This document shows, piece after piece, positions 3,802-62,278 of a stretch of 64,000 nucleotides of DNA. Under the pieces are notes generated by a model. That model was given only the letters and a program-made list of their open reading frames with translations. It did no database searches and was not told where the DNA came from. Source of the DNA: a virus (lineage: Duplodnaviria > Caudoviricetes); IMG/VR virus record IMGVR_UViG_3300032070_000007, positions 2,892-66,891 of that record; one strand, written 5' to 3'. Numbering within the stretch: the first letter of the stretch is position 1; each line of letters starts with the position of its first letter. The position numbers were made by a program, and so were the translations under genes.

Positions 3802-4161
3802 ATGCCTATAAGTAAGGATAAATTCAAGCAGGGAGAACTCTACACCATCATGCGTTTAGAAGATGTGATGGAACCCGACCAAGCATACCAAATAAAGGAG
3901 ATAGCAGTACTAGTTCGCCGTACACCTATGAGAATAGGGTATAAACTCCGTGAACTCGAAAAAGACGGTAAGGCTGAGTGTAGGCGAGTGGACGGTAAAA
4001 TAGTTTGGGCGTTGACGGAGACTGCTTATCTAGAAGGGACTGTTAAGGCAGATAAACAGAAGTTGAGAATTAGAGGAAGGCCAGTTAAGGAAGCTAGAAT
4101 GAGGGGCAAGAAGGGACAGAAACCCACCTACGTTGGTAACAAAAAAACTAAACCTACTTGA
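3802..4161 (+). CDS. winged-helix DNA-binding protein
   Basis: AYQIKEIAVLVRRTPMRIGYKLRELEKDGKAECRRVDGKIVW wHTH pattern; GGAGG RBS. Confidence 0.7.
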   Translation: MPISKDKFKQGELYTIMRLEDVMEPDQAYQIKEIAVLVRRTPMRIGYKLRELEKDGKAECRRVDGKIVWALTETAYLEGTVKADKQKLRIRGRPVKEARMRGKKGQKPTYVGNKKTKPT

Positions 4162-4183: not shown

Positions 4184-4227
4184 CTCATGGTCATTTGAAT
4201 GATGACTAAGCTCTAGGGGAGGTGAAA

Positions 4228-4461
4228 ATGGAAATGTGTCCAATAAGTGCCGACGAGTTTGAAAAGGGCAAGAGTGCAACCAAGAAGGACCTCACGGAGG
4301 TTCTAGAAGAGGGCAAAGGGTATACCACGAAGGAGGTAGCAGACCTCATCGGACGATCGTGGGGCATAGCAAAGAACATCCTGAAGGCTGCAGTCGAAGA
4401 AGGCACAATAGAGGTAAAGAAAGTTGGAAGAAGTATCTACTGGCGCCTGAAGCCTCAGTAG
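4228..4461 (+). CDS. small winged-helix DNA-binding protein (paralog family)
   Basis: GYTTKEVADLIGRSW...LKAAVEEGTIEVKKVGRSIYW; GGAGGTGA RBS. Confidence 0.75.
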   Translation: MEMCPISADEFEKGKSATKKDLTEVLEEGKGYTTKEVADLIGRSWGIAKNILKAAVEEGTIEVKKVGRSIYWRLKPQ

Positions 4462-5946: not shown

Positions 5947-6302
5947 TGTCAACTCATTTGGAACAAATAAAATCCCTTCTTTCTTTAACGGGTCAAGTTC
6001 ATAGTGAGGAGTTCCCGTATGAACGAATATATGTGTATTCTATAGTTACTCCTACAGGCGAGCTAGTTATAGGAGCACTTGGTAAGAAAGGAACTCGTGT
6101 TGTCGATGTAGCAGTACTTCCTGAATTTAGAAAGGAAGGAGTGGCTTCTGCATTAATCAAAATTGCGGAAGTTGACACTGCCTATGTGGTAAGTGAGGAA
6201 GCTGAAAACTTCTGGAGTCACATAGGTTGGTATTTTGTCTGTCCCATTATGGACAAGGAAGTTGAAGTGAAAGTATACTGTAAAAAGGGGAAGATCGTTT
6301 GA
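5946..6302 (+). CDS. GNAT-family N-acetyltransferase
   Basis: Acetyl-CoA motif A (VDVAVLPEFRKEGVASALI) and motif B (AENFWSHIGW). Confidence 0.8.
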   Translation: MSTHLEQIKSLLSLTGQVHSEEFPYERIYVYSIVTPTGELVIGALGKKGTRVVDVAVLPEFRKEGVASALIKIAEVDTAYVVSEEAENFWSHIGWYFVCPIMDKEVEVKVYCKKGKIV

Positions 6303-6715
6303 GCAATACTGAGGGAATAAAAGCTGCTGTTGGAGTAAGCTATAGGAAACATATTAGTGAGTACAGTAAGGAGCTTGTAGCGATACCGTTTGGTTTTCCG
6401 GGCAAACGCGAATTAGTGGAGCATGAAACTGATGAGCTAACATCTGTATGTCCGGTGACTGGATTGCCAGATTTCTATCATATGGTTATCAGTTACTTGC
6501 CGAAGGATTTGCTGGTAGAGCTGAAGTCATTAAAGTTCTACCTCATGCAATTCAGAGACGTTGGCATTTTGCACGAGGATTTGGCGCAGAAGATATTACA
6601 AGACTTTATTGCAGTAGTACATCCGGAAGTTTGTACAGTCGACTTGACAGCAGCTTCAAGAGGAGGAATAAGTACGCACGTAGTTGCGAGATATCCAGAG
6701 CCAGGAGGTGAGTAA
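6299..6715 (+). CDS. queF: preQ0 nitrile reductase QueF (preQ1 synthase)
   Basis: TSVCPVTGLPDF catalytic Cys/Asp, QueF motif VELKSLKFYL, HE, RGGI. Confidence 0.9.
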   Translation: MSNTEGIKAAVGVSYRKHISEYSKELVAIPFGFPGKRELVEHETDELTSVCPVTGLPDFYHMVISYLPKDLLVELKSLKFYLMQFRDVGILHEDLAQKILQDFIAVVHPEVCTVDLTAASRGGISTHVVARYPEPGGE

Positions 6716-6716
6716 T

Positions 6717-7502
6717 ATGCCTTGGGAAAAGGGACTGAATAAAGACAAACCCCCAGCTAAGACTAAGGAACAGTTGTTTACTGATATTCATGAGCTTGCA
6801 AAGAAGGCAGGTATAAAAATTGGAGTTCACGGAGTTGCTGAATCTGGTAAAACTCACTTCTGTTGCTCCTCACCACCGCCAGTCTATATACTAGAGACTG
6901 ATGATGGAGCTGCACAACTTGCGAACAATTTCCCATCCAAGAACATTAAGGTACTTAACTGCTATGTAACGACAGGAGACCCGCAGACGGAATGTAAGGC
7001 CTCATTAGACATGCTGAAAGAAGCGTTGGTTGCATTGAGTGACTTGAATGAGGGAACTATTTGCATTGATAGCGGTACAGATCTTTGGGAGTGGATTGGA
7101 GGAACTCTACGTTTGGAGATTTTGAAAGTTGACTTGGCAGCTAGAGTGGCCCCTGCTGACTATAAGTGGGCGAATGCGGAGTATCGGTCGATAATCATGA
7201 AGTGTCGGGCGATTAATGCTAACTTCGTCATTACGGCAATGGATGGGGAAGTATTCAGGGATGCTAAGTTGACGCCCACGAATGTGTATAAGGCAGAGTG
7301 GCAGAAGTGGACGCCAAGGTGGTTGGATTGCCAAATACGGTTGATGAAGGAAGAAACAAAGACTGGATATACGTTTAGGGCGTTCATTGAGAAGTTCAGG
7401 CATCACAGGTTGACAAATAGGGACTTTCTGAACTTAGACTTTGATGCATTATATGCAGTGCTTAAACCGTATCTAGTGAAACCGCCGGAGAGTGCAACGT
7501 AA
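6717..7502 (+). CDS. AAA ATPase (AAA_24/Sak4-like recombination protein)
   Basis: Walker A GVAESGKT, Walker B TICIDS; GGAGGTGA RBS before ATG 6717. Confidence 0.75.
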   Translation: MPWEKGLNKDKPPAKTKEQLFTDIHELAKKAGIKIGVHGVAESGKTHFCCSSPPPVYILETDDGAAQLANNFPSKNIKVLNCYVTTGDPQTECKASLDMLKEALVALSDLNEGTICIDSGTDLWEWIGGTLRLEILKVDLAARVAPADYKWANAEYRSIIMKCRAINANFVITAMDGEVFRDAKLTPTNVYKAEWQKWTPRWLDCQIRLMKEETKTGYTFRAFIEKFRHHRLTNRDFLNLDFDALYAVLKPYLVKPPESAT

Positions 7503-7754
7503 TGTTGAACAACGTACCTAGAAATCTTTGGTCGGTTGTAACATTCGGTCTCTTTCATTTTCAAGAAATTGAACGATTAGCAACAGTAATTTACAGGATC
7601 AAAATAGACGACAGAACTATGGGGACTACGAAATGAGAGCTAGAGCTGCGTGTGGACATATAGTGGAGATTCCATGCAACTGGAATATTAACGGAAGATG
7701 TGGAGCTGATACTTCACCATGCATAATAATCTCGTTAGTAAGGAGTGATCAAAA

Positions 7755-8120
7755 GTGACAGATGATGAGTTTGATGAGAAGTTGGGAATTACTGCAGATG
7801 CTATGATGAACTCGTTAGCTGCAAAGGCAGTACAAAAGGCTTGTAAAGAGGTACTTATGAAGGTACTTCGAAAGCATAATCTGCGTAAGGATAGTTGGCA
7901 TAGGACAACAAGTGTATTCTCAATGGGAGAGTTAGTACATAACAAGATGCACCGATTAAAAGAACTGTACCCTAAGATAGCGTTAGGAGGTTCAGAGGTA
8001 TTGAAAGAAGTCAATGATGAACTGGATGATATCATTGCATACAGTGCATTTCAGAAGTATGTCCTGAATGTCGATAAGTTGAGTAACCCTTACACAACAC
8101 CGGAGAGTGACACTGTTTAA
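7755..8120 (+). CDS. nucleotide-modification-associated all-alpha NTP pyrophosphatase-like protein (DUF1599/Nmad1-like)
   Basis: K..N...DSW...NKMHRL...ELDDIIAY pattern. Confidence 0.55.
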   Translation: MTDDEFDEKLGITADAMMNSLAAKAVQKACKEVLMKVLRKHNLRKDSWHRTTSVFSMGELVHNKMHRLKELYPKIALGGSEVLKEVNDELDDIIAYSAFQKYVLNVDKLSNPYTTPESDTV

Positions 8121-8198
8121 CTCCCGTAGAACGGTTAACTGCTTGATACCGGAGGCAGCATTAAGCAGGTTCGGATTCACCTCCTTTCCTGGCTCCTA

Positions 8199-8408
8199 TT
8201 GGTATCCTTTGACCCTACAGAGGGATTAGCAGTGGGTACAGGTTTAGTAGGAAGATTCGAGTACACTCCGGATAAAAAGGGCAAGTGTGAGAAGGGGCAT
8301 GATATGATGAAAATCGAGAGTGTGAAGTTGTTCTCGATAGGAAGGGATTGGACTGTGGAAGGATATTTTTACTGTCCAACCTGTAAACTTATTTACCAAA
8401 AGATGTAA
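8199..8408 (+). CDS. small Zn-ribbon protein
   Basis: CEKGH...CPTC; true start may be the GTG at 8232. Confidence 0.5.
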   Translation: MVSFDPTEGLAVGTGLVGRFEYTPDKKGKCEKGHDMMKIESVKLFSIGRDWTVEGYFYCPTCKLIYQKM

Positions 8409-8428
8409 TAGAGGTGAGAAGAGTGCAA

Positions 8429-8830
8429 ATGAAGAATATAACAAAAGTCCTTCACTTTGATGCGGCACACTATCTTGACAAAACATTTGGTAAATGTCAA
8501 AATCTACACGGTCATCGCTACTTCGTAGAGAACATAGTTGTAGGATTCGATGGTATTGTTGATTTCGGACTGATAAAGAAAGCTGTTGATAGTTTTGATC
8601 ACTGTTTGCTGATACCAGGAAACCACGAGGCATTTTGGAAGAATGTAGATACTTTAGCTAAACAATCCGACCTTCCTTTCATCATTAAGACAGTTGTTCT
8701 TAGTAGCATGTCTCTTGTTGAAAACATTGCCCAGGATTTAGCAATGCAGATATCAGCGATTCCGGGAGTACGTTCTGTTAGCTTTGACCTATATGAAGGA
8801 CATAACCAAGGTGTTCATGTTGATACTTAA
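8429..8830 (+). CDS. queD: 6-carboxy-5,6,7,8-tetrahydropterin synthase QueD
   Basis: FDAAH, CQNLHGHRY, VDFG, FDH, ENIA, LYE motifs. Confidence 0.92.
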   Translation: MKNITKVLHFDAAHYLDKTFGKCQNLHGHRYFVENIVVGFDGIVDFGLIKKAVDSFDHCLLIPGNHEAFWKNVDTLAKQSDLPFIIKTVVLSSMSLVENIAQDLAMQISAIPGVRSVSFDLYEGHNQGVHVDT

Positions 8831-8899
8831 TCTGTTGAGACGAAAGTCTCACTCTTTCCCCATATATTCCAGATAATAGTTAACATAGAGGAATTGAGA

Positions 8900-9031
8900 A
8901 TGTCGAGTAAGTCTAAGAGTAAGTGCTGTCCTCATTGTGGCACGGATCTTAGTGACTATACTCTTCCTTCAGATGAATATTGGAAAACTCGTTGTCCATA
9001 TTGTGGAGGTAAGTTGGATGCTAGTAAATGA
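8900..9031 (+). CDS. Zn-ribbon microprotein (43 aa, not in ORF track)
   Basis: MSSKSKSKCCPHCG...RCPYCGGKLDASK*, overlapping the queE start. Confidence 0.6.
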   Translation: MSSKSKSKCCPHCGTDLSDYTLPSDEYWKTRCPYCGGKLDASK

Positions 9032-9641
9032 AATCTTTGAAAGTGTTCAGGGAGAAGGTACTTTTCTAGGATACCCTGCACTCTTTATACGCCTACAGGG
9101 ATGCAATTTGAGTTGTCGGTTCTGTGACACAAAGTACGCGTTAGGGGAAGGTGGAATGGATGTTAAACTTGATAGCTTGGTTGCGTTAATCAGAAACTCC
9201 CCTTCCTATCATGTAGTGTTTACAGGAGGAGAACCCTTACTTCAACAGAAGGAAATTAGTGAGGTAATAAGAGAGGTTAATAGAGGTAAGTTTTATGAAG
9301 TAGAAACTAACGGAACAATCAAGCCTAATATTGAGTTTTTAGTTCACCTTTTCACAGTATCACCGAAAGATGATTTCCAAATTTCACCTAGCTTTTTCGA
9401 GATGCCGGGAGTGGTTTTTAAGTTCGTGGTCGATAAAGAGGAGGATTTGGAGAAAATCGAGAACTTCGTAGACTTACATGATATTACAAGACCGATATAC
9501 TTGATGCCACAAGCTACTACATTGTTGGAGCATAAGAAGAAGTTGCCGATGCTTTTTGAGTTCGTGAAAGTGCATCAAGGGCATTATAGAATTACGCCCA
9601 GGTTGCAGATCTTAGCCTACGGTAAGAGGAAGGGAGTTTAA
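9018..9641 (+). CDS. queE: 7-carboxy-7-deazaguanine synthase QueE (radical SAM)
   Basis: EIFESVQGEG, CNLSCRFCDT (CxxxCxxC), TGGEP, ETNG, TVSPK, LMPQ, PRLQ. Confidence 0.95.
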   Translation: MLVNEIFESVQGEGTFLGYPALFIRLQGCNLSCRFCDTKYALGEGGMDVKLDSLVALIRNSPSYHVVFTGGEPLLQQKEISEVIREVNRGKFYEVETNGTIKPNIEFLVHLFTVSPKDDFQISPSFFEMPGVVFKFVVDKEEDLEKIENFVDLHDITRPIYLMPQATTLLEHKKKLPMLFEFVKVHQGHYRITPRLQILAYGKRKGV

Positions 9642-9868
9642 TGCTAACACCTAAAGTTTACGTCATAAGCTCCACCAACCTTGTTACGCCGGAAGGCAAA
9701 GTGATTCGTAAAGACATTATGCAGGAAGTTGTTGACACTAATGGTGACTACTACTGTGTGGTATATAAGCAGTTGTCAAAGTGGGCACAAGAGTTTATGG
9801 GTACGTTGCAGAGCGAGTTTGTAGAGTATTTAGTAGAACCGGAGGCAAAAGCTTGTACGAGATGTTGA
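9641..9868 (+). CDS. hypothetical protein
   Basis: Start overlaps the queE stop. Confidence 0.55.
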   Translation: MLTPKVYVISSTNLVTPEGKVIRKDIMQEVVDTNGDYYCVVYKQLSKWAQEFMGTLQSEFVEYLVEPEAKACTRC

Positions 9869-10007
9869 GCAATCTAGGTGCAAACCTTTGCGCAAGGGAA
9901 ATAAGCAAACAAGTATGGACTGTGTATAAAGAGCAATCCTTCAGTGAGACGGAAGGAGACCCAGAGTGCGGTCGTCTTGTACAAGTTGCCATATCCGGTA
10001 TTAGGAG

Positions 10008-10283
10008 GTGTTAAAGTTGGTTAAAAAAGAAGCCAGAAAGCAACTTTTTCTAGAGGCAAACGATACTTTAATAATAAGGAACACAACCGCAAATGTAATG
10101 CGGTTAGAAACGGATAAGGACTATGTAGAAATTCCTCCAACCGAAGCGATAGTAGTAGTGCGCGAAACTATGTGGGTGAGTTACAGTGAGCACTCTAGAC
10201 AGTTATACAAACTCCTTCGCATGACTTTCTGGCAAAGGTTAAGGTGGGCACTTTCAAGAAAGGCAGTTGAGGTGATGGAATGA
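10008..10283 (+). CDS. hypothetical protein
   Basis: ORF within the co-directional gene run. Confidence 0.5.
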   Translation: MLKLVKKEARKQLFLEANDTLIIRNTTANVMRLETDKDYVEIPPTEAIVVVRETMWVSYSEHSRQLYKLLRMTFWQRLRWALSRKAVEVME

Positions 10284-10714
10284 ATCTCCTAAAGAAACTA
10301 CGTACCCTCATTCGTCGTCCTGTAGTAACCGTTAGGGAGCTACAAGACACCGGAGCAGTGCAGGTACAGCAGAAAGAGCAGAGTAGTGGAACAAAACTGA
10401 CTAAATCAGTACCCGCGGCTGAGCGTGTAGCGCTCAATAGAGTCCACGAAATGCGCCCTGTAAATGTTAAGCCTGCACATAAAATCTCTCCTAATATTAG
10501 CAAGGGAACGGAAAGTGGAAGTCCCTACAGTTTGGCTATGATTCCAAGGCAACGCGGTAATCAGCGGACGAATGCTGTAGCTACTCTCACCCGGAGGCCC
10601 TTGTCTAATATCCGTGCTGTACGGAAAATGAAGCACGGTCATCAATCACCATATTATCGGAAGAGCGTGAGAGCTAATGTCAAACCGGATGAAGAAGAGA
10701 CGGAGACCATTTAG
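10280..10714 (+). CDS. basic hypothetical protein
   Basis: GAGGTGA RBS; ATGA overlap with the upstream stop. Confidence 0.6.
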   Translation: MNLLKKLRTLIRRPVVTVRELQDTGAVQVQQKEQSSGTKLTKSVPAAERVALNRVHEMRPVNVKPAHKISPNISKGTESGSPYSLAMIPRQRGNQRTNAVATLTRRPLSNIRAVRKMKHGHQSPYYRKSVRANVKPDEEETETI

Positions 10715-11015
10715 TCCGTTCGTTTGCGAAGACTGCAAAGACGAGCGTGGTAAGCATAACGAGTGTATAGGGTGTTACTGCGATGTGTGAAAAACCGATA
10801 GAGGATAAAACTCTCTGTGGCTGCGAAGATTGCTGGGAGTGTAACCATCATAGTCACTCGCCTCCTCCAATGGAGGATAATAAGTCACAACGCGGGAGGC
10901 AAGAAGGGAAGGTTATGAGCTCAAACCTTTCTCTGATTGCTCTGCTAAGCCCCCATGTAGTGCGGGATTCCCTCCGTGGCTGGCGGGTGACATCTAAAGT
11001 TGGGAAGGAAGAGTC

Positions 11016-11198
11016 ATGAGTGAAAGTTACATTAAACGAAAGAAATTACAGGATATTGAAAAAATAGCTGAAGAACATGCTGCATGGTTTGTTGAAGTTG
11101 TTATACCAATGTTTAAGCCTATTGTCAAAGAAACCGCTAAGACATTTTTCCTTCACGGTTATAAACATAGAATTGATGAGGAAAAGGTGAAGAAGTAA
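11016..11198 (+). CDS. hypothetical protein
   Basis: Stop overlaps the thyX start. Confidence 0.55.
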   Translation: MSESYIKRKKLQDIEKIAEEHAAWFVEVVIPMFKPIVKETAKTFFLHGYKHRIDEEKVKK

Positions 11199-11797
11199 TG
11201 GAAGTCATTCTACTACGCTTTAGTCTCGATCCAGAACTACTTTGCACGCAAGCAATGTTAGGATGCCAAAGTACAAAAGCGGCGTTTGAAATTGAACCTG
11301 ATGCGGAACGTATCAATAGGATGATGACAATGGCAGTTACTACAGATGATGCTTCAGTCTTGGAACATGCTTCGTTTACCTTTAGTGTCAAAGGAATCAG
11401 TCGAGCATGCAGCCATCAGCTAGTGAGACATAGGATAGCAAGTTATAGTCAGCAGTCACAAAGACATGTGAATCCAACGAAGGTTCCTAATTGGTACTGT
11501 ACTGCTGAAACTATTGAGAAGTCAGGTCACGGTCCGGAGTTTCAGCAACTCATGAACTTATGTGCCAAAGAATACCAATCTTTGATTGATTCTGGTGTTC
11601 CGGAAGAAGACGCACGCTTCGTTCTACCAAATGCTTGCAAAACAAACATCGTTATAACCATGAACTGCCGTGAACTACGTCATTTCTTCAAGCTACGGTG
11701 CGCTAAGAAGGCACAGTGGGAGATCCGCGAAATGGCGAATAGAATGCTCGATCTGTGTATACAAAAAGCACCAACAATCTTTGGAGGCCTAAGATGA
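11198..11797 (+). CDS. thyX: flavin-dependent thymidylate synthase ThyX
   Basis: SVLEHASFTF, SRACSHQLVRHRIASYSQQSQR, EDARFVLP, AQWEIR. Confidence 0.96.
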   Translation: MEVILLRFSLDPELLCTQAMLGCQSTKAAFEIEPDAERINRMMTMAVTTDDASVLEHASFTFSVKGISRACSHQLVRHRIASYSQQSQRHVNPTKVPNWYCTAETIEKSGHGPEFQQLMNLCAKEYQSLIDSGVPEEDARFVLPNACKTNIVITMNCRELRHFFKLRCAKKAQWEIREMANRMLDLCIQKAPTIFGGLR

Positions 11798-12477
11798 AGG
11801 ACGTTCAAGAAGAGCAAGCTGAGGATCTAGGAATAATGGCTGGTATCACTAGTTACAGCATAGTGATAAAGTCCTCTAAGTGGACACTCTTCATTGAGTT
11901 GGAAGTGAAGGTTCCGATACTCAATAAACGGGGAGCACATATGAGCAGGTTGATATTCCCAGAGACGGTGAAGTGTGAGAGTGTTGAGCAGTTTATTAAC
12001 GATGCAAAGAAGTTGATAAAGGAAAAAACTGGCGTTTACCCCTACATCAAAATGGTGTTTAAGTTTCCGTGGAAGGATCAGTTTCCAACTATTATCGTCG
12101 AGAACTATATTGCCATAGGAAACGAATACACGTATATTATGAAAGGAATAACTGCGTGTCCTTGTTCAAAGGAAAGCATTGGTATAGGACATATGCAGAA
12201 GTGTGAGTTGAAGATAAAGATAAATGCTAAACTTCCACACCCTAAGTTTGAGGACATATTTAGGTTAATGGAAGGTTGCTTTTCTGCTTCGTTGACGGAG
12301 AAGCTAAAGAGAGATGAGGAAGCTGCTAAGATTAAGGAAGCTCAGGATAATGCAAAGTTTGTCGAAGATGTCGTAAGAAATGCTGTTAAGAGTATTCCTA
12401 ACATTAGGTACGTGAGAGCAGAGTCAGATGAAAGTATTCACAGTCATAAGGCAGTAGCGGAGTGGTGGAAGAGTTGA
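11794..12477 (+). CDS. folE2: GTP cyclohydrolase type IB (FolE2/MptA family)
   Basis: MKDVQ, RGAHMSRL, TACPCS, HMQ, KFVEDVVR, ESIHSH. Confidence 0.88.
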   Translation: MKDVQEEQAEDLGIMAGITSYSIVIKSSKWTLFIELEVKVPILNKRGAHMSRLIFPETVKCESVEQFINDAKKLIKEKTGVYPYIKMVFKFPWKDQFPTIIVENYIAIGNEYTYIMKGITACPCSKESIGIGHMQKCELKIKINAKLPHPKFEDIFRLMEGCFSASLTEKLKRDEEAAKIKEAQDNAKFVEDVVRNAVKSIPNIRYVRAESDESIHSHKAVAEWWKS

Positions 12478-12632
12478 CAGAGAATTGTGGAACCGGTTGT
12501 AGGGATCCACAGCATATGGTTAAGTGCGTGAAGTGTGGAGCTGAGTATCACGTAGGTCTTCAGCATAACTGTCCTACTTATATAAAGAGTAGTTATGAAA
12601 AGCAACGAAGTTTCGAGAAGGAAGTGATATAA
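12465..12632 (+). CDS. Cys/His-rich microprotein (not in ORF track)
   Basis: GTG-started ORF ...NCGTGC..H..KCVKCG..H...HNC... filling the gap after folE2. Confidence 0.45.
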   Translation: MEELTENCGTGCRDPQHMVKCVKCGAEYHVGLQHNCPTYIKSSYEKQRSFEKEVI

Positions 12633-12633
12633 T

Positions 12634-12834
12634 ATGAAAAGTGAAGAACTTTGTAAAAAGCTCCGAGAGATAACCGATGCTGTAAGGAAGGTTCCAGGCA
12701 TTCAAATTACAAGTGTTGATACTGGTATAGATATAGACAGAGTCTATCTCGTTGGAGAAATGGTACCGAAAATCCTTACAATGGAACTGATCGTAAAGAT
12801 CGGACTGAAACTTGAAGCAGAGGAGGTGACTTAG
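12634..12834 (+). CDS. hypothetical protein
   Basis: GGAAGTGA RBS; abuts queC. Confidence 0.6.
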   Translation: MKSEELCKKLREITDAVRKVPGIQITSVDTGIDIDRVYLVGEMVPKILTMELIVKIGLKLEAEEVT

Positions 12835-13557
12835 ATGGAAGTTGTAGTCACAAAATCTCAACGTTCAACGGTTGTAACACCAACATTTAGTAAACCTTCA
12901 ACAAAAGTTGTAATGTTATTGAGTGGGGGAGTTGACTCTGCAACTCTAGCATACTACTTGATGAAACAGCATCAAGAGTTGCATGCATTGACAGTTGATT
13001 ATGGGCAAAAGCACTATAAGGAAATTCAGGCAGCACAAGATATTGCTGATGCAGTAGGAATCAGTCAGAGGATATTAGATTTGAGTACGTTACAACCTCT
13101 GCTTAAAAGTGCATTGACTACTAATGATCCAATACCAGAAGGTCATTATACAGCTGAGAACCAGAAGTTAACAGTCGTACCAAATAGGAATGCAATACTT
13201 TTGAACATCGCTGCTGGCTATGCAATAAGCATAGGTGCTAATACAGTTGCGTACGCAGCACATAAGAATGATAGGGCAATTTATCCTGACTGCAGGCCGG
13301 AATTTGTAAGTGCATTACAAGCAGCATTGGATGTCGGGACGGATGCAGATTTACTGGTATACGCTCCATTCATCAATATGACAAAGGCACAAATTGTGGA
13401 ACTAGGTATAACATTGAACGTTCCCTATGAATTAACCTGGTCGTGCTATAAGGGTGAAGAGAGGGCGTGTGGCAGGTGTGGAACGTGTGTGGAAAGGCTG
13501 GAGGCATTTAAGTTGAATGGCGTGAAGGATCTGATAGAGTATGAGGGAGTAATATGA
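12835..13557 (+). CDS. queC: 7-cyano-7-deazaguanine synthase QueC
   Basis: LLSGGVDS, DYGQKH, VPNRN, YPDCRPEF, TWSCY...CGRCGTC. Confidence 0.97.
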   Translation: MEVVVTKSQRSTVVTPTFSKPSTKVVMLLSGGVDSATLAYYLMKQHQELHALTVDYGQKHYKEIQAAQDIADAVGISQRILDLSTLQPLLKSALTTNDPIPEGHYTAENQKLTVVPNRNAILLNIAAGYAISIGANTVAYAAHKNDRAIYPDCRPEFVSALQAALDVGTDADLLVYAPFINMTKAQIVELGITLNVPYELTWSCYKGEERACGRCGTCVERLEAFKLNGVKDLIEYEGVI

Positions 13558-13615
13558 TGCCCACAATATTAATTCATTCGACTGGCCAGTTACTCTATTC
13601 CAGGAGGAAGAGGAA

Positions 13616-14374
13616 GTGAAGTTAGCGATAATTTCGCCAATCACGCATCTGAATGAACTTAGTAACCTAGGGGACATTCAGTTTGCTCTTGGTCATGTTA
13701 AGGATCTTAAGTACATTGAGTACTATCGTGAGCAAGCAAAGCAAACGTATACTATTATGGATAACGGAAGTTATGAACTTGGCAAGAGCGTCAGTTTTGA
13801 CGACATATTCGAAGCAGCGGAAGAGATAAAGCCTGACGAAATCGTCGCACCGGATGTGCAGTGGAATCCAGTCGAGTCTCTAAATCTAACCCGACACTTC
13901 ATGAAATATGCGCATGGGCGCGGGTTACGAGATAAGTACAAGATTATGGTTGTTGTCTGGGCGTTTGACCCAGGAGACTTTCCGATGTGGTACAAGGAGT
14001 ACCTCAAGTTGAACCCCGATGTAATTGGTATCGGAAAATGGCTGTCAACGAAATTCCTAGCAAGGCCTAGTGTTGTTCAATTGTTGAAATATGAGCATAT
14101 GTGGAAGAGTGATATTGAGCACCATTTTCTGGGATGTGGTTTTCCTGGCGAAGCACTCCAACTGCATGATGAGGGGCGCTCAATGGACACTAGCGGACCA
14201 ATCGCCGATGCTATGAATGGGTTGAGATATGTGGAAGGTGAGGAATACTTAAACCTTCACACGAGTTCGTTGAAGAGGAGTTTGGACTTTAATGCCCGGT
14301 TAACACCTGAGCAACTCGAAATAGCAAAAGCAAACTGTCGGATAATGTTGGACTACGCGCATGGAGGAAAATAA
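13616..14374 (+). CDS. dpdA: DpdA/TGT-like 7-deazaguanine transglycosylase (subfamily undetermined)
   Basis: IMDNGSYE, VAPDV, HFLG and SMDTS match TGT-fold motifs; directly after queC. Confidence 0.72.
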   Translation: MKLAIISPITHLNELSNLGDIQFALGHVKDLKYIEYYREQAKQTYTIMDNGSYELGKSVSFDDIFEAAEEIKPDEIVAPDVQWNPVESLNLTRHFMKYAHGRGLRDKYKIMVVVWAFDPGDFPMWYKEYLKLNPDVIGIGKWLSTKFLARPSVVQLLKYEHMWKSDIEHHFLGCGFPGEALQLHDEGRSMDTSGPIADAMNGLRYVEGEEYLNLHTSSLKRSLDFNARLTPEQLEIAKANCRIMLDYAHGGK

Positions 14375-19280: not shown

Positions 19281-19390
19281 TGTTAGGGCAATATGTTATC
19301 TTAAGATTTCAGATTTGGGACGCGACGCGTCTAAGTTTTTTTCGAAGTCTTAAGACATCAGATAGTTTATCTCAGGCAGTGTGAACTTCC

Positions 19391-55868: not shown

Positions 55869-57425
55869 TTACATTCCTCTTATTGTTGGTGCTAAAATTT
55901 TCCGATAATACATAGGATGAAAAGGAATAGGCTCAACTGGTTTGCCTTTAAGTTCCCATACCAACTGTGCTAGTGCATCAGCGAGATCTTTAGCTCCTTT
56001 CCTAGGATGATCCACCTTTTGGCCCCTGTAAATTTCTAAATTCGTCAACTCATCCTTTAGTGCTTCGTGCTCATAACAGTCAACTTCATGGAGCCGCCAG
56101 GCCTCCTTAAGACGTTCGTGTTGCTGGAGTTTTACTACGTTGAATTCCACTTGAACTCCTGATTCTCGTATTTCAGCAATCGTTTCAGGGTAGTCCCAAC
56201 GGTCTACAATGAACTTGCTGATGTCGAAGCGTTTCTTTAAGGTTCCGATGAAGTACTTAACTTCTGTGGGGTCAACTTCAAGTTTTGGAGCGATCTTATG
56301 TAGCAGGTCTATGAATATGCGGCCGTCTTCAGTCAAATGACCTAACGCCAGACCAAAAGACTCAAATTTGGATGCCGGATCGCCTGTTAACACATAATCA
56401 AAACTCCTACTGCCCATCAACCAGTCCGCTATCTCGCCGTTTACTAGTACTGGATTCATTCTTTTCTTATTGAACTCGATTATCGAAACATCTGTATAAT
56501 ACTTTTCGATAGCACGGGAAGGTTGAGCCCCGTAATCTCGCCAAGCTGCGTCAGGATCCTGTGCAAAGTCGTCCTGCAGCATTGCTTCAGTGATGTTAGG
56601 ATTCATGTCCCAAGTCGCGTATTTGTATCCAAGCATAGTTTCGATACGTTTGGATTGTTCGTAAAGTTGATCTATGATGTCGCCTGAGTAGAGTGTTGAG
56701 GAAATAGCGACTCGTCTAGCTTTCAGCGCGGGTACCTTCTTGGTGCCACGACCAAGACCATGAAACACCGCCCAACCACTACGTCCACCTTTAGTATCCT
56801 GAAATCTACCTAACTCATCAAATAAAGCAGCTTTAACTGCCCTTCCAACCAATGAGGCACTATTTGACCCACCACACTTTATCGTTACGTGCTTTTGTGG
56901 GAAACTGAACTCATTATATCTTTCATCTGGATGTAACCATTGGAAGTATGGCGAGTTCTCTATCTTCCCTTTCTCTTGCGCGTATATGGTGTCGTGAGCT
57001 TGGTCATCGGAAGTAGCTACGTTAAGGACGAAAAATTCCGTACCCGAACCCGCACCGTAAAAGTGTACAGGGTCGTCAAGTGACAAGAGTTCGAATGCCT
57101 GCTGGAGTCCGATGCAGGAAGTGAGGAATGTTTTGCCTGAATTCATTCCAGCCTCTATTATCAAATCGTTATACTGTTGGACGTGAGCTTTAGTGAACTC
57201 TTCCATCTTATCGGTACGCAAAGCATCCTCACGTAACCCTATCCATTCATCAATTGACATGGCTTTTGGGACTCCCCAGATAAATCGTCTGATGACGTCT
57301 TTTTCGAGAGGCCACATCTCCTGTCCCAAGAAGTACTTGTCCTCACAGAAAAATATAGGATCAAACCTAGCCTGCAGCATCTTATGCATTTGCTCTTCGG
57401 GAGCTAGGTCTTCCCAGTTTTTCAT
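55869..57425 (-). CDS. terL: terminase large subunit
   Basis: GMNSGKT, LFDE, GDPA, KDLADA. Confidence 0.9.
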   Translation of the reverse strand: MKNWEDLAPEEQMHKMLQARFDPIFFCEDKYFLGQEMWPLEKDVIRRFIWGVPKAMSIDEWIGLREDALRTDKMEEFTKAHVQQYNDLIIEAGMNSGKTFLTSCIGLQQAFELLSLDDPVHFYGAGSGTEFFVLNVATSDDQAHDTIYAQEKGKIENSPYFQWLHPDERYNEFSFPQKHVTIKCGGSNSASLVGRAVKAALFDELGRFQDTKGGRSGWAVFHGLGRGTKKVPALKARRVAISSTLYSGDIIDQLYEQSKRIETMLGYKYATWDMNPNITEAMLQDDFAQDPDAAWRDYGAQPSRAIEKYYTDVSIIEFNKKRMNPVLVNGEIADWLMGSRSFDYVLTGDPASKFESFGLALGHLTEDGRIFIDLLHKIAPKLEVDPTEVKYFIGTLKKRFDISKFIVDRWDYPETIAEIRESGVQVEFNVVKLQQHERLKEAWRLHEVDCYEHEALKDELTNLEIYRGQKVDHPRKGAKDLADALAQLVWELKGKPVEPIPFHPMYYRKILAPTIRGM

Positions 57426-58061: not shown

Positions 58062-58128
58062 GAAACGGTTCCACGGTTAAACGGTTAATGAAATTTATAT
58101 ATGTAGTACAACCGTTTATCCGTTTTTT
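58062..58128. promoter_or_regulatory. second ACGGTT/AACCGTT repeat element with TATA core
   Basis: ACGGTT three times, then TTTATATATGTAGT, then AACCGTTTATCCGTTTT. Confidence 0.5.
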
Positions 58129-58283
58129 CTGAAATTTTTTGCCCAAAAATTCTATAGTACCCCAGCACTGCAACATAGGTCAACGCAAGTCCGTAACCAA
58201 TACTTCCTAACTTTACTCTGGGAATTCCGCAGAGTAAATTCTCGTAGAGATGACATATTCCGTCATTTTTATATATTAAATAT

Positions 58284-58430
58284 TAAGATTCCTTACTTAA
58301 GTATTACGACTTAAGATTACGGAGTTTATATTAAATATTACGACTTATGACGTAAGACTTGAGTATTAAGATAAAGGACTGTATATTAAATATTAAGACT
58401 TAAGTATTGTTAATTAAGTCTTAAGATTAC
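58284..58430. repeat. TAAGAC/TACGAC/CTTAAG short-repeat array (left)
   Basis: Multiple direct and inverted copies. Confidence 0.6.
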
Positions 58431-58585
58431 GGAAGTAATATTGTATAGTAAGTAATAGGAGTTAGGAAAGTATATAAATAAATTAATATTGAATAGTAAG
58501 TATTAAGATATAAAAGTTTAAATGGAAATGTAAATTTTAATATTATAAAAAGTTTAAAATTAAGGAAAGTTTAAATGTAAATGTA

Positions 58586-58604
58586 GAAAAGATTTATATA
58601 TAAG
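58586..58604 (+). promoter_or_regulatory. BRE-TATA promoter of the C-free operon
   Basis: GAAAAGATTTATATATAAG about 45 nt upstream of ATG 58640. Confidence 0.7.
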
Positions 58605-58639
58605 TTTGTATATTATATAATTAAGGAAAGTGAAAAAAA

Positions 58640-58876
58640 ATGAAAATAAGTGAAAAAGTTTGGGAAAGTGGAAAAAGTTTGAATGGAAATGAGAAAAAGG
58701 AAAAAATATTGGAGGTTTTGGTAAAGGAAGGAATATGTGATATTGAGGAGATAAGGAAAGTAGGAAAAGAAAAGTGGATATGGGGAAGTTTGAAAAGTTT
58801 GGAAGAAGAAGGATTAGTGGAAAGTAGAAAAGTAGGAAAGAAGAAGTTTTATAGGATAAAGGGGGTGGAAAATTGA
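58640..58876 (+). CDS. small winged-helix protein encoded without C
   Basis: Aligns by eye with the 59805 and 61894 paralogs (WESG...KILE...KW..G.LK.L.E.G.VE..K.GKK..YR). Confidence 0.8.
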   Translation: MKISEKVWESGKSLNGNEKKEKILEVLVKEGICDIEEIRKVGKEKWIWGSLKSLEEEGLVESRKVGKKKFYRIKGVEN

Positions 58877-59196
58877 AATTTGAGAATTGGAGTGATAAGA
58901 GAATAAAAGAGGAAAATAGGAAAAGAGAAGGAATAAAGGAGGGTATGAAAATGAAAAGTTGGAAAGAAGTAAAAGAAGAATGTAAGGAAAATGGAGTAGA
59001 TATGAATAGGTTGAATTGGGTAGATAAAAGAAAAGGAGGAAGAAGAAGGAAAGTTGTAGGAATAGGAGGAAGTGAGAAAGAAAAAGAGATAATGGAAAGA
59101 AATGGATTTAGGAAATATAAAAGTGTGGAAGTAGGAATGAGTAGAGGATATGGATATTGGTGTTGGGTAAGGTTTGAAAAGGAGGTGGAAAAATGA
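58873..59196 (+). CDS. basic hypothetical protein encoded without C
   Basis: GGGGGTGG RBS, TTG start, coupled to both neighbours. Confidence 0.7.
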   Translation: MKFENWSDKRIKEENRKREGIKEGMKMKSWKEVKEECKENGVDMNRLNWVDKRKGGRRRKVVGIGGSEKEKEIMERNGFRKYKSVEVGMSRGYGYWCWVRFEKEVEK

Positions 59197-59396
59197 GTTA
59201 TAAAAGTTGGGGAGGAAGAAAAATAGTTAGGAGAAAAGATGTGAAAGGAAAATGTGGAGTTTGTGGAAAAGAGGAAGTGGAAATGATAGAATTGGAAAGG
59301 AAAGAAGGAGAAAGTGAGGAAATAGGATTAGTGATGGAAGTTTGTAAGAGTTGTAAGTATGTAATAGATTGGGGATTAGGAAAAGAGGATTGGTAG
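59193..59396 (+). CDS. Zn-ribbon protein encoded without C
   Basis: GGAGGTGG RBS; CGVCG...CKSC. Confidence 0.75.
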   Translation: MSYKSWGGRKIVRRKDVKGKCGVCGKEEVEMIELERKEGESEEIGLVMEVCKSCKYVIDWGLGKEDW

Positions 59397-59416
59397 AAGG
59401 ATATTAAGTAAGAAAG

Positions 59417-59426
59417 TTTTTTTTTT
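59417..59426 (+). terminator. oligo-T terminator
   Basis: T10 run 20 nt after the last stop of the operon. Confidence 0.7.
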
Positions 59427-59454
59427 GTAAGTTTGGATTTTGGAAATTTAGTAT

Positions 59455-59670
59455 CGTAAATCGTACGACTTAAGTCTTACTTCTTAATACTTCATACAAC
59501 TCACCTCACCCTCCCCAAATCTTAAGACTTAAGACTTCAGAAAGTGTCGTAAGTCTTAAGACTCAAGTCTTAATATACATCTTTCCAAAGTTCCTCTCTG
59601 TTTCCATTATAACGGAAAGTTCCAATAATATATAAATACTTTCCCTTGGTATCGTAAGTCTTACGACACG
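59455..59670. repeat. TAAGAC/GTCTTA palindromic array (right)
   Basis: AGTCTTAAGACT, TAAGACTCAAGTCTTA, TCGTAAGTCTTACGA; further copies at 60196-60260. Confidence 0.65.
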
Positions 59671-59745
59671 GAAGTTTACACTTTTATATAAACTTTTAAA
59701 TGTTTAGGAGTAAGGAAAGTTAAAAAGTTTACACTTTTATGTTGA

Positions 59746-59762
59746 CAAAATTTATATACTAG
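59746..59762 (+). promoter_or_regulatory. BRE-TATA promoter
   Basis: CAAAATTTATATACT upstream of 59805; similar CAAAGTTTATATATT at about 60714. Confidence 0.65.
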
Positions 59763-59804
59763 AAAGTATATATTATAAGTGGAAATAAAAGGAGGTGAAA
59801 AGGA

Positions 59805-60050
59805 ATGCAAATAAATGCGGAAGAATGGGAAGCGGGAACTGCAGTTTCGGCAAGCGAAAATAAGGAAGCAATTCTGAAAGCGTTTGCAAAAGTGAAGGGC
59901 AAAGGAATGGATATGAAGGAAATTGGAAAGCTAAGCGGACTAAAGTGGCCATATGGAGCAGTAAAGGCTTTAGTGGAAGATGGAAAGCTGGAACGCAAGC
60001 AGTTCGGAAAGAAGTTTGGGTATAGGATGGTAGAAGTTAAGGAGGAATAA
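59805..60050 (+). CDS. small winged-helix protein (paralog)
   Basis: GGAGGTGA RBS; GMDMKEIGKLSGLKW...VKALVEDGKLERKQFGKKFGY. Confidence 0.8.
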   Translation: MQINAEEWEAGTAVSASENKEAILKAFAKVKGKGMDMKEIGKLSGLKWPYGAVKALVEDGKLERKQFGKKFGYRMVEVKEE

Positions 60051-60765
60051 ACCTCCTAACTTTCCATCCTCCAAACTCCAACCTTTGTTTGAAATCCAAC
60101 CGTGCAAAGTCGGAATTGTAGAACTTTGGCGGCGATGGGGTGAGCCCAACCATATGGCTGCCGGTAGTGTGGGAACCCGGGGCATGTCGTAAATCCTAAG
60201 ACTCAAGTCTTACTACTTAAGTCTTAAGGTACTCATCTGAACTCCTAAGACTCAAGTAACATACCTTACGATTACAATTTGCGTACGACCTAGATCCTGT
60301 ATGACGGGCTTCCAAAAACGTTTCCAACATAAAAACGGTGATACTACTATATGTTTTTTTATGAGCCGTTTAAACGGTTAACCGTTGCATCTGAACACCT
60401 AAGACTCAATACACTATCCTTCCGTTCTTCCCGTATAGTAGAGGACTTAGTACTTTCCCATATTTCCACTCTTTCCCATATATAAATAAAGTTTACTTGA
60501 GAATGTAAACGTCTTGTGGTGAGATAGGCATATATTTCTAGGCTCGTAAACATATGGGGTTTACATAAAGATGTAAACTTCCTTATGTGGCTGAGGCGCA
60601 TCTTCTTACTTTTAATATGGAGGTTTAATTGAATATGTAAATTTACATTTTTATGTAAACTTTTAATATGGTCATGTTTTAGGCTTCATCGTAGGTTTAC
60701 AGCATCGTGTAGACAAAGTTTATATATTTGAAAATTAATTTTACTTTGTACTTAAGGGACTCAAA

Positions 60766-61512
60766 ATGGAAATAAAAAATAAGCTTCCAGAAATGGAAAA
60801 GCAACTTCCAGAACACCTTCAAATTCTAGAACTAAAGGATTGCGTATTCACGTACGATGAAGTAACAAAGAGAGGTTTGCAAAATGCATTCCAACTTTAT
60901 TGTAGACAGAGGTTGATAGTGGAGTACAGCAAGGTGATTAGACAAAGGGTTAAGGTTAGGGGCGTCGGAATTGCTAAGTTCAAGCAGAAGTATAATGTTC
61001 CAAAAGGTACTGCACTTTATACTTTTGTTCGGGACCACGAGACAAAGGAGTATAAGGAATTGGAAAGGCTTTGGGTGAAGAGAATAGCGTGGATACAAAT
61101 GGTTGATAGGGTGAATTGTGATAGGGTTGATAGGGTTGTGGAGGATTCACAAAGGGCAACCGAGAGGCACAAAACGAAGAGTATCGATAAGCAGATTGTG
61201 GAGGAGGTTGAGTGGTTGAAAGGTGCTAAAGTGCAACCAAGAACAAAAGGACCATTCATATGTAAAGAATGCGGAGGTACAACTTATCGGGTTAATAAAG
61301 GACAGCAAGCGTGCACTAGTTGTGGAGTCGGCTTTAATACACAAAGTGCAGGTCCTGGTCCGAGGGTAATAAAGAGACCAAAAAGGAAATTCAAAAGAGT
61401 GGAGTACATTAACGGAGATGTGAAAGTGTTGAGTAAGGAGGGGCAACTAACGAATGGTGTAATGGAAGTTTATGGTCACGAAGGGTGGATGAGTGGCAAG
61501 GGGGTGATGTAA
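60766..61512 (+). CDS. hypothetical protein with Zn ribbon
   Basis: CKECGG...CTSCG; own TATA box. Confidence 0.7.
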   Translation: MEIKNKLPEMEKQLPEHLQILELKDCVFTYDEVTKRGLQNAFQLYCRQRLIVEYSKVIRQRVKVRGVGIAKFKQKYNVPKGTALYTFVRDHETKEYKELERLWVKRIAWIQMVDRVNCDRVDRVVEDSQRATERHKTKSIDKQIVEEVEWLKGAKVQPRTKGPFICKECGGTTYRVNKGQQACTSCGVGFNTQSAGPGPRVIKRPKRKFKRVEYINGDVKVLSKEGQLTNGVMEVYGHEGWMSGKGVM

Positions 61513-61845
61513 ATGGTAACTGAGGAAGAAATGATAGACCAGATAGTCATTGCGGAAAGCAAAGAGGAGTTTGATGAGTCAGTTCATATACTTGAAAAGA
61601 TAGCAAAGGTATATGGATACACATGTGAGATGACGGATGATGGGAACTGGATACTTTCAAATCTAGGAACAGAAACCAAAATAGAAGTACTGTTCGATTC
61701 TAGTAGAGGAGGAGACGTTCCAATGTGGTTGACGGTTAACGATAAGACAACTACTGAGCTTGTGGATCCAGACGCTCCTAGAAAGATAGTTGAGAAGTGC
61801 ATAGCGTTCATGAAGGAACATAAGGACTCCCCTTCGAGTCGTTGA
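61513..61845 (+). CDS. acidic hypothetical protein
   Basis: GGGGTGA RBS. Confidence 0.65.
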   Translation: MVTEEEMIDQIVIAESKEEFDESVHILEKIAKVYGYTCEMTDDGNWILSNLGTETKIEVLFDSSRGGDVPMWLTVNDKTTTELVDPDAPRKIVEKCIAFMKEHKDSPSSR

Positions 61846-61893
61846 AAAGTACGACGAGACCTTTTTGGTAGGGAGCACTAGAATGGAGGTGAT

Positions 61894-62139
61894 ATGATGC
61901 CAATAATTGATGAAGAGGAATGGGAAAGTGGAACTGCTTCTACTTCTGGCGCCACTGAATCAATACTGGAAGCGTTCAAGAACTTAGGAGCAAACAAGGG
62001 CATGGACATGGCGGAAGTCAAGAAGATCACTGGACTCAAATGGATCTTTGGTCCCATGAAGCAGCTGGTTGAGGCCGGCAAGTTGGAGCGCAAGAAATTC
62101 GGCAAGCGGTTCGCGTATAGGCTTGTAGCCCAAGAGTAG
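61894..62139 (+). CDS. small winged-helix protein (paralog)
   Basis: Close paralog of 59805; followed by a T-run at about 62147. Confidence 0.8.
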   Translation: MMPIIDEEEWESGTASTSGATESILEAFKNLGANKGMDMAEVKKITGLKWIFGPMKQLVEAGKLERKKFGKRFAYRLVAQE

Positions 62140-62278
62140 GCTACAGTTTTTTTTTGTTCGATTAGTACAGAGTAGTAATTTGGTTAACAATTACATTATT
62201 TGGATAGATTTGAGTTTAAATCGGAATTTGTAAGAAGTTTTTTGTAAACTAATAAACTCGGGATGCGGAGGTGATAAA

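Follow-up and report, generated by a model that had tools for sequence, protein, structure and literature searches.

The DNA analysed here is a 64,000-nucleotide (nt) stretch of a tailed virus (Duplodnaviria; Caudoviricetes), referred to below as the window, which corresponds to bases 2892-66891 of IMG/VR record IMGVR_UViG_3300032070_000007. An overlap of ~170 nt between the two ends of the 66,891-nt record shows this genome to be complete and self-closing. Near the right end of the window the plus strand contains no cytosine (C) for 1,024 consecutive positions, and this run holds a cassette of three small genes, the first of which encodes a winged helix-turn-helix (wHTH) protein. The features of the cassette, including its open reading frames (ORFs), with protein lengths in amino acids (aa), are as follows.

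58431-59454, plus strand: the C-free run and whole cassette, 1,024 nt; the bottom strand is free of guanine (G)
58461-58625, plus strand: tandem promoter-like repeats in units of 53-55 nt, C-free, with boxes resembling the TATA box and the B recognition element (BRE); putative promoter
58640-58876, plus strand: wHTH-C, a 78-aa winged-helix protein, the C-free paralog
58951-59196, plus strand: ORF2, an 81-aa basic protein with an invariant WVDKRKGGR-RK motif
59193-59396, plus strand: ORF3, a zinc-ribbon protein of 67 aa whose two CxxC pairs lie 26 residues apart
59417-59426, plus strand: a run of ten T (T10), terminator-like, 21 nt past the ORF3 stop; putative terminator

The run is the longest C-free sequence in the window and in the entire record, where the runner-up measures 60 nt, and at a C frequency of 0.20 the chance of such a run is ~8e-100 per site. 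Counts of C per 100 nt are zero from 58501 through 59400. In order, the run consists of ~190 nt of promoter-like repeats, wHTH-C, ORF2, ORF3, and the T10 run, and the spacers, which carry Shine-Dalgarno-like sites, are likewise C-free. It opens ~40 nt upstream of the first TATA-like box and closes 28 nt past the T10 run with a step-like border, zero C over 1,024 nt being followed by 11 C within the next 46 nt. The opposite strand of the cassette contains no ORF of at least 40 aa. The extent of the run fits a transcription unit, with promoter and terminator assigned by motif alone. From putative promoter to putative terminator, zero C is both beyond chance and conserved among relatives (see below), as would be expected of a natural transcription unit that lacks one base. 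Because coding and non-coding parts are equally devoid of C, a purely protein-level or codon-level cause is ruled out. A sequence-only reading of this region had described the wHTH-C gene as a C-free copy of its paralogs; this description is confirmed, but the C-free feature is the whole operon with its non-coding parts, and is therefore wider than had been claimed.

The TATA-like octamers in the cassette repeats start at 58471 and 58593, and the repeats of this promoter region belong to families D1, D4, D6, D13, and D16. The same promoter architecture reappears before the genes at 59805 and 60766 (families D4 and D6). At operator-like half-sites the homologous promoters at 59724 and 60695 have C and the cassette copy has A, which suggests that the regulatory DNA has been 'recoded' as well.

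wHTH-C contains no alanine, proline, histidine, glutamine, or threonine. An AlphaFold2 model built from a 30-sequence alignment, with a predicted local distance difference test (pLDDT) score of 73.8, has four helices (residues 5-10, 16-30, 35-42, and 48-57) and a beta hairpin (strands 60-65 and 68-73). With moderate confidence, this model indicates a winged-helix fold in which a helix bundle with a helix-turn-helix is followed by a beta-hairpin wing. The top Foldseek matches in the PDB are all winged-helix DNA binders with template modelling (TM) scores of 0.6-0.7, none at E <= 0.001. The best Pfam match is TrmB (E 0.0015; 18.8 bits against a cut-off of 25.6), and no curated Pfam family was reached above its cut-off by the wHTH series. 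For ORF2, the ORF list gives a TTG start at 58873 and the homologues begin at the methionine of MKSWKEV. Its AlphaFold2 model (pLDDT 71.3) is of alpha/beta type and matches nothing in the PDB at E <= 0.001 (best folds TM ~0.4, E >= 0.03), and the protein has no Pfam or PHROG match and no usable Atlas match. For ORF3, sub-threshold matches were found in Pfam (DUF5679, E 0.01; Zn_ribbon_TFIIS, E 0.24) and in the PDB (Churchill, E 0.044; RPA12, E 0.52). Further downstream, residues 164-188 of the ORF at 60766-61512 resemble the TFIIB zinc ribbon, also below threshold (Pfam E 0.036). The TFIIS-, RPA12-, and TFIIB-type resemblances of these two proteins are below significance and serve as leads only.

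The three genes have a purine content of 78-81%. Ratios of nonsynonymous to synonymous substitution (dN/dS) against relatives are 0.23-0.33 for wHTH-C and 0.19 for ORF2. In combination with a dS of 0.77-1.3, dN/dS values of 0.19-0.33, which the Nei-Gojobori (NG86) method overstates in the cassette because C-ending synonymous states are closed, argue that the cassette genes encode real, constrained proteins and that the ban on C was enforced throughout their divergence.

Upkeep of the cytosine ban in related loci

A metagenome scan recovered five related loci, mutually close, and all five have C-free runs (953, 2,108, 2,206, 1,672, and at least 1,733 nt). In the longer runs, a degenerate tandem array with a 12-nt unit takes up ~1 kb ahead of the promoters, and the unique part is again ~1 kb. 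In locus L005 this array, at 8749-9784, has 83 copies with 73% matches and higher-order periods of 25, 37, and 49; it is also present in L006, L007, and L008. The length of the array differs among loci, and in four of them one frame is an (IDYV)n ORF starting MKMSNGNLI. In the window the place of the array is taken by 55-nt repeats that carry CTTAAG motifs.

Between the window and L005, 930 aligned positions with 70% identity contain 278 mismatches, none of which involves C; the same is true of all 278 mismatches with L007 and all 246 with L004. In the flanks, C is involved in 17 of 43 mismatches in the wHTH-A gene, 92 of 183 in the terS-like gene, and 166 of 394 in the region of the large terminase (TerL). 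At a share of 0.4, finding none among 278 has P ~2e-62. Synonymous sites in the cassette are near saturation and none of them uses C. With 0/278 in the cassette against 40-50% in flanking genes, the ban is absolute and has been actively maintained through divergence.

The ban has outlasted exchanges of the genes themselves. ORF2 of L004 is unrelated to ORF2 of the window and also C-free, and ORF3 of the window differs from ORF3 of L005 and L007. Such turnover fits what is typical of early accessory or anti-defence loci, judging from gene content. At the position of the T10 run L004 has a run of twelve T. A 964-nt contig from another sediment run (X3) seems to link 58478 to 59714 through 30 C-free letters; it is either a cassette-less relative or an alignment effect of the promoter repeats, and nothing is claimed from it.

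The missing residues allowed the ban to be followed beyond these loci. A first profile search gave 31 proteins of the wHTH family, which fall into three orthologous types, A, B, and C. Among them are six orthologues of wHTH-C with 74-87% identity, all lacking the same five amino acids. The A, B, and C types recur jointly on the long contigs of relatives. An exhaustive profile search of 1.84 billion representatives gave 31 proteins, of which 26 were taken, and 56 were analysed together with the first set; left out were P0019, an N-terminally extended near-duplicate, and the long multi-domain proteins P0054, P0057, P0059, and P0061. Sixteen of the 56 contain no alanine, proline, histidine, glutamine, or threonine, including nine further representatives at <50% identity on contigs of 617-6,153 nt, where the proteins suggest a C-free state. 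With 25.8% such residues in the composition of the genome, the chance of a 78-aa protein without them is ~8e-11. A tree of the family places all 16 five-residue-free proteins on the same side, where two low-count proteins join them; this takes three label changes, and none of 500 shuffles needed so few. Support for the basal split is weak, and a common composition may draw the five-residue-free rows together. P0046 and P0050, with 6 and 4 of these residues, lie inside the C-free clade of the tree.

Winged-helix paralogs and base composition of the early region

Downstream of the cassette the plus strand continues with further members of the wHTH series and their neighbours.

59724-59778, plus strand: promoter/operator copy of wHTH-A, followed by the wHTH-A gene at 59805-60050, plus strand, 25/246 C (10.2%)
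60695-60743, plus strand: third copy of the promoter architecture
60766-61512, plus strand: ORF, 12.4% C
61513-61845, plus strand: ORF, 14.7% C
61894-62139, plus strand: wHTH-B, 18.7% C, with a hairpin and a run of nine T at 62123-62155
4222-4461, plus strand: fourth, distant wHTH paralog, 17.9% C

The proteins encoded at 58640, 59805, and 61894, each of ~80 aa, share 38-39% identity and 23 invariant columns. An in-genome phmmer search of 448 ORFs with the C-free copy finds the other two at E 1.7e-12 (59805) and 6.4e-11 (61894), which bears out the homology proposed in the sequence-only reading, and the C counts it had made by hand are exact (0/237 for 58640-58876, 25/246 for 59805-60050, and 46/246 for 61894-62139). 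It had also named two more distant copies. One of these holds at 4222-4461 (phmmer E 8.9e-5; hhalign probability 95.7%, E 1e-8), and the other, at 3802-4161, finds no support (phmmer E 0.58; hhalign probability 0.9%, E 0.06). At codon level the differences between the copies go beyond simple C-to-T changes, as had been proposed: alanine GCN codons correspond to AGT, AAA, GTT, and others, leucine CTN codons correspond to TTR, and arginine CGC to AGT or AGA, where the context changes as well. The first copy is thus a protein-level recoding under purifying selection (dN/dS as given above).

The same reading had seen a gradient of C along the paralogs. In gene order from the cassette, C amounts to 0, 0, 0, 10.2, 12.4, 14.7, 18.7, 16.9, and 20.2%, against a reference for the plus strand of 16.5% on average (standard deviation 3.8; 31 long ORFs). 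C content does rise along the series, but it is set by gene position, and unrelated neighbours behave alike. The gradient is a property of place in the early region and not of the paralogs. In the next early genes the loss of C shows no preference for a dinucleotide context (p 0.13 and 0.19) and extends to every codon position, and therefore acts at the level of the base and not of a motif.

A second, weaker avoidance concerns T. The share of T-ending codons was computed on isoleucine, glycine, and valine codons, which do not need C.

Cassette: 8/67, 0.12
Cassettes of relatives: 19/95, 0.20
Next early genes: 38/116, 0.33
Rest of the genome: 988/2,174, 0.45

The cassette contains no C-ending codons, and for aspartate, asparagine, tyrosine, phenylalanine, cysteine, and AGY serine, where the only alternative to T is C, T is always used. 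T is thus avoided wherever synonymous choice permits, and the avoidance of both T and C fades over the next three genes.

Flanks, gene blocks and likely host

On both sides of the cassette the DNA is rich in repeats and palindromes.

58272-58436, plus strand: left flank, three 55-nt repeats with C-containing palindromes of the CTTAAG type (period 55, 2.8 copies; family D3)
59455-59700: right flank, palindrome cluster with candidate operator sites, including an 8-mer at 59461 and a perfect 10-mer at 59553
59475-59525, plus strand: pyrimidine tract immediately beyond the cassette, rich in C and the longest G-free run of the window

The core of the pyrimidine tract, at 59500-59516, has 11 C in 17 nt, and equivalent G-free tracts of 45-51 nt occur in L004 and L007. 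CTTAAG sites of the right flank lie at 59469, 59521, 59528, and 59555, and of the 21 copies in the window 11 are within 58296-60751. The right flank also holds repeat families D2 and D15 and the inverted pairs I1-I4. The 10-nt palindrome of 59553 has only one further perfect copy, which lies with two CTTAAG sites at 19299-19356, in an intergenic gap before a 399-aa ORF at 19391; the same regulators may act there as well. A G-free, C-rich tract (60046-60086, 41 nt) likewise trails the wHTH-A gene; it is 79% complementary to 59704-59731 upstream of the wHTH-A promoter (pair I16), and an AGGAGG...CCTCCT hairpin spans the wHTH-A stop codon (60035-60086 region). A structured RNA considered at 60051-60200 was rejected at a z-score of 0.66. 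Inverted copies of the AAACGGTT-repeat element (30 nt, 77% complementary) at 58064-58093 and 60357-60386 bracket the entire control region, that is, the cassette and wHTH-A; the left copy falls in the gap that separates the terS-like gene from the cassette, a possible location of a packaging site.

The cassette stands at a switch between two gene blocks. A leftward block extends over 22.4-58.0 kb and ends with TerL (55869-57425), which is 25-26% identical to terminases of bacterial phages, together with a small ORF upstream of it, and a rightward block starts at 58.6 kb and continues through the record junction to 22.3 kb. The rightward block contains the following genes.

Rightward block: UvrD-type helicase, PD-(D/E)XK nuclease, ERCC4 nuclease, LAGLIDADG protein
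Rightward block: family-B polymerase, with best full-length matches in haloarchaeal tailed viruses (95% coverage, E 2e-36)
Rightward block: ThyX and a MazG-like protein
5946-14374, plus strand: 7-deazaguanine gene set, with starts of GNAT at 5946, QueF at 6299, QueD at 8414, QueE at 8937, ThyX at 11198, FolE2 at 11755, QueC at 12835, and a DpdA-like ORF at 13616

The preQ0 enzymes FolE, QueD, QueE, and QueC are all present, and with QueF they make up a full preQ0/preQ1 pathway; matches above Pfam cut-offs are GCHY-1 (104.9 bits), PTPS (53.8), Radical_SAM (43.4), and QueC (229.7), as well as QueF and Thy1. The ORF at 13616-14374 resembles, weakly (24% identity, E 5e-4), a protein named 'DNA guanine transglycosylase' in four Flavobacterium phage records; it has no Pfam match, no PDB match, and falls in a PHROG of unknown function. 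A GNAT-type acetyltransferase ORF (5946-6715 region; Pfam E 2.6e-5, below cut-off) overlaps the QueF start by 4 nt, and could point to an N-acylated preQ1 derivative in the DNA. Given the full preQ0/preQ1 pathway, the modified base in the DNA of this virus is likely guanine and not cytosine.

All six sequencing runs listed for this DNA are sediment metagenomes. Neither sigma-70 promoters (39 against 33.9 +/- 6.2 expected) nor hairpin terminators (15 against 13.6 +/- 3.6) are enriched in the genome, and TATA-like octamers occur 33-54 nt upstream of six start codons. Together with the affinities of the family-B polymerase, these observations suggest that the host is probably archaeal. Two scans of a genome contig collection found no relative, provirus, or host; scans of a viral contig collection with wHTH-A, TerL, and three alignments found no relative, and tblastn of wHTH-A against GenBank phages gave no match. 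The window has no Rfam match at gathering thresholds and no gene in a tRNA scan. The virion block contains four very large minus-strand ORFs (1,581, 1,250, 1,529, and 1,270 aa; 23695-46404), and a scan of these for a viral RNA polymerase returned a single Laminin_G_3 domain and no other Pfam match.

Explanations for the ban and comparison with known systems

The cassette opens the rightward block, has putative tandem promoters and a T run of its own, and consists of small regulator and accessory genes, all of which suggests an immediate-early 'bootstrap' operon. The constraint appears to act at the nucleic-acid level, per base and nearly all-or-none, on the transcription unit. C alone among the bases is fully dispensable in a translatable message, since A, T, and G are all required for start and stop codons.

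The cause that we favour, tentatively, is that the operon can be transcribed without cytidine triphosphate (CTP), at a time when CTP is lacking or has been made a chain terminator. The host RNA polymerase would complete the operon while C either cannot be built into RNA or is fatal there. Sediment hosts starved of energy may be short of CTP; alternatively, CTP could become a weapon against the virus through viperin-type enzymes, which produce the chain terminator 3'-deoxy-3',4'-didehydro-CTP (ddhCTP). Each C would then cost a large share of transcripts, and all C would be purged. The products, a first regulator and fast-changing small proteins that resemble anti-defence or take-over factors, would alter the cell, which would then permit expression of progressively C-richer downstream genes. 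Transcription without CTP is favoured because it accommodates the absolute ban, the weaker parallel avoidance of U, the fading gradient, and the anti-defence-like gene turnover at once. A broader proposal, which we hold more tentatively still, is that these A/G/U gene cassettes belong to sediment viruses, probably archaeal, that use a cytidine-free bootstrap operon and a 15-amino-acid alphabet to answer C-based nucleotide warfare that the host wages or suffers as infection sets in.

Several points weigh against this explanation. CTP scarcity, viperin, and C-directed defence are hypothetical for the host, which did not appear in the two genome-contig scans, and the six runs listed for this DNA include no RNA dataset. 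Seen from the sequence, three constraints look alike: an RNA free of C, a template free of G, and a non-template strand free of C. Archaeal viruses are thought to rely on the host polymerase, according to the accessible text of one source (PMC5569661), and a chain terminator that hits viral transcription and spares host transcription by one and the same enzyme needs extra assumptions. The ~1-kb C-free array of the relatives lies upstream of the promoters, and must be either transcribed or C-free by descent. In L005 and L006, C is present in the last seven codons of ORF3. Finally, P0064, an ORF2 homologue with 70% identity, has one glutamine and two threonines; its 3,792-nt contig is equal in length to that of P0011, a B-type wHTH protein, and may represent a relative whose ORF2 gene escapes the ban.

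The closest rival places the cause on the template strand. The sequence-only reading had proposed that the paralogs progressively unlock transcription or coat the modified DNA. These roles, which are hypothetical, have indirect support in the promoter/operator architecture common to the cassette, 59805, and 60766 and in the clustering of palindromic motifs in the control region. The gene equipment of the virus is for modification of guanine, not cytosine, so the idea of modified DNA survives only if read on the template strand, and in this repaired form it runs as follows. Virion G present as a 7-deazaguanine of the preQ1 type would hinder the Pol II-like archaeal polymerase, and the first operon would offer a G-free and hence modification-free template. 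All G of the cassette would lie on the non-template strand (33-36% G), where it could still be protected, and early products, or replication into not-yet-modified DNA, would open the remaining genome. We regard this as possible but rather improbable. The same genome has the complete preQ0/preQ1 set, the weak DpdA-like ORF, and the GNAT gene overlapping the QueF start, and G is the sole modified base whose loss from the template is compatible with coding. The template-G-rich tract right after the terminator would in this case be a modification-dependent stop. The archaeal Haloarcula vallismortis tailed virus 1 (HVTV-1) shares the gene module, and ~30% of its G is dPreQ1, as stated in the available part of PMC6884629. 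Archaeal tailed viruses with this pathway are named only for Druskaviridae in the accessible portion of PMC8651126, and the rarity of the pathway gives its co-occurrence with a G-free template some weight. However, in 100,000 of the 102,319 bases of HVTV-1, C-free runs reach no more than 47 nt and G-free runs no more than 31 nt, and Campylobacter phages described as 'highly modified' by dADG are still transcribed (PMC6884629, same part). Moreover, modification of G leaves the synonymous avoidance of T and the gradient unexplained, which transcription without CTP accommodates.

The ban could instead serve the message itself. Many toxin, CRISPR-accessory, or CA-specific beta-CASP nucleases have C-containing sites, and a C-free, U-poor message would be uncut by C-requiring ribonucleases, unfolded, stable, and translatable from the first minute. 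This would agree with the high purine content of the three genes, in which G-C pairing is impossible, with an extent that matches the transcription unit, and with the two-tier avoidance of pyrimidines. Yet isolated C in harmless contexts would be tolerated under such a regime, and zero C in 278 substitutions and in 16 proteins is stricter; the nuclease itself would also be hypothetical. We therefore consider evasion at the RNA level unlikely.

Somewhat more doubtful is protection of the DNA at a genome end that enters the cell first, as do the first-step-transfer DNA of T5 and the leading end of T7. A C-free strand carries no palindromic or two-orientation restriction site that contains G:C pairs, and non-coding DNA is C-free too, including the promoter repeats and the ~1-kb array of relatives. 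The cassette adjoins the terminase genes at the gene-block switch, the expected place of a packaging site, and dense repeats and palindromes follow it. Against this, the record is self-closing and the contigs show no molecule ends, C-containing palindromes including CTTAAG stand immediately at both sides, and there is no avoidance of palindromes made up of A and T alone. Since few single C would create a site, this reading does not lead one to expect an absolute ban.

An origin of replication is very unlikely as the cause. A purine-rich early transcript would stay on the pyrimidine template as an R-loop and prime the viral family-B polymerase, comparable to R-loop priming at the origins of ColE1, T7, or T4. 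The cumulative GC skew turns at 57-58 kb, iteron-like repeats flank the cassette while relatives have 12-nt arrays, and no primase was recognised among the ORFs scanned. In published nearest-neighbour energies, though, it is rU and not rC that is costly in RNA:DNA hybrids, and in the cassette C is banned and U only reduced. An energetic effect that adds up along the hybrid would not demand the loss of every C; in addition, purifying selection acts on the proteins of the three ORFs. Least likely of all, and highly improbable, is a mutational origin in which the top strand is exposed as single-stranded DNA in each cycle, every C is deaminated, and the proteins adapt: this would explain the absoluteness and the non-coding DNA without strong per-site selection, but T is depleted and not enriched (21% in the cassette genes; T-ending share 0.12 against 0.45), replacements are mostly to purines, and the borders are steps and not slopes. 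Avoidance of Rho-type termination was set aside, as it predicts no absolute ban and the host seems to be archaeal.

If functional, the cassette is a natural experiment in reduced nucleotide and amino-acid alphabets, an operon held at zero cytosine over deep divergence. It offers a testable handle on the first minutes of infection in uncultured sediment archaea, including nucleotide supply, analogue defences, and the reading of 7-deazaguanine. If C-based nucleotide warfare is indeed its cause, the cassette marks an undescribed archaeal antiviral mechanism together with the viral answer. It would then also follow that DNA-binding and zinc-ribbon proteins can work and evolve over the long term without alanine, proline, threonine, histidine, and glutamine, and folded proteins without these five amino acids are on hand for protein-evolution work. 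Long coding runs that lack one base are also a simple search key for immediate-early and anti-defence genes in viral dark matter.

Each system that comes near the cassette lacks some part of it. In the immediate-early and pre-early regions of T7 and T5 a first unit near the packaging genes encodes small regulators and take-over proteins and is followed by repeats, and its sequence reflects what the DNA encounters on entry. The cassette likewise heads the early block next to packaging genes with repeats after it; to our knowledge, no base is absent from the T7 and T5 regions. Under Szybalski's rule coding strands are richer in purine, and all gene blocks of this genome show such purine loading, whereas the cassette takes it to a hard limit within a single, sharply bordered unit. 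In eukaryotic viruses, loss of C or of deaminase- or viperin-related targets under a host factor that works via the lost base or motif is partial and genome-wide; in the cassette the loss is total and limited to the first operon. The three paralogs are like small winged-helix regulators of the ArsR/SmtB, TrmB, AspA, and Sso10a types in predicted fold and in size, and palindromic candidate sites are close by, with the difference that one of them is built without five amino acids. HVTV-1 has in common with the window FolE, QueD, QueE, QueC, QueF(-like), MazG, thymidylate synthase, a Hef/ERCC4 nuclease, a RecB/Cas4-like nuclease, and a family-B polymerase, and differs in having no base-free run. 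In the 7-deazaguanine literature, as far as the accessible text of PMC6884629 extends, no link between modification and strand composition turned up.

No earlier description of a natural C-free viral gene cassette was found in openly searchable full text, supplements and most subscription journals aside, and the cassette is unlike any described kind of element found. Long sequences that miss one nucleotide are rare in nature, according to the part of PMC6526412 that is available. The nearest counterpart is the C-less or G-less cassette of the laboratory, a promoter-to-terminator unit missing one nucleotide, which a polymerase finishes without that nucleoside triphosphate. Archaeal polymerases are among those with which C-less cassettes are used (for example PMC4495717 and PMC5715097). 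In contrast to these man-made, non-coding units, the cassette of this virus is natural, encodes three proteins in a 15-residue alphabet, and is conserved in its lineage.

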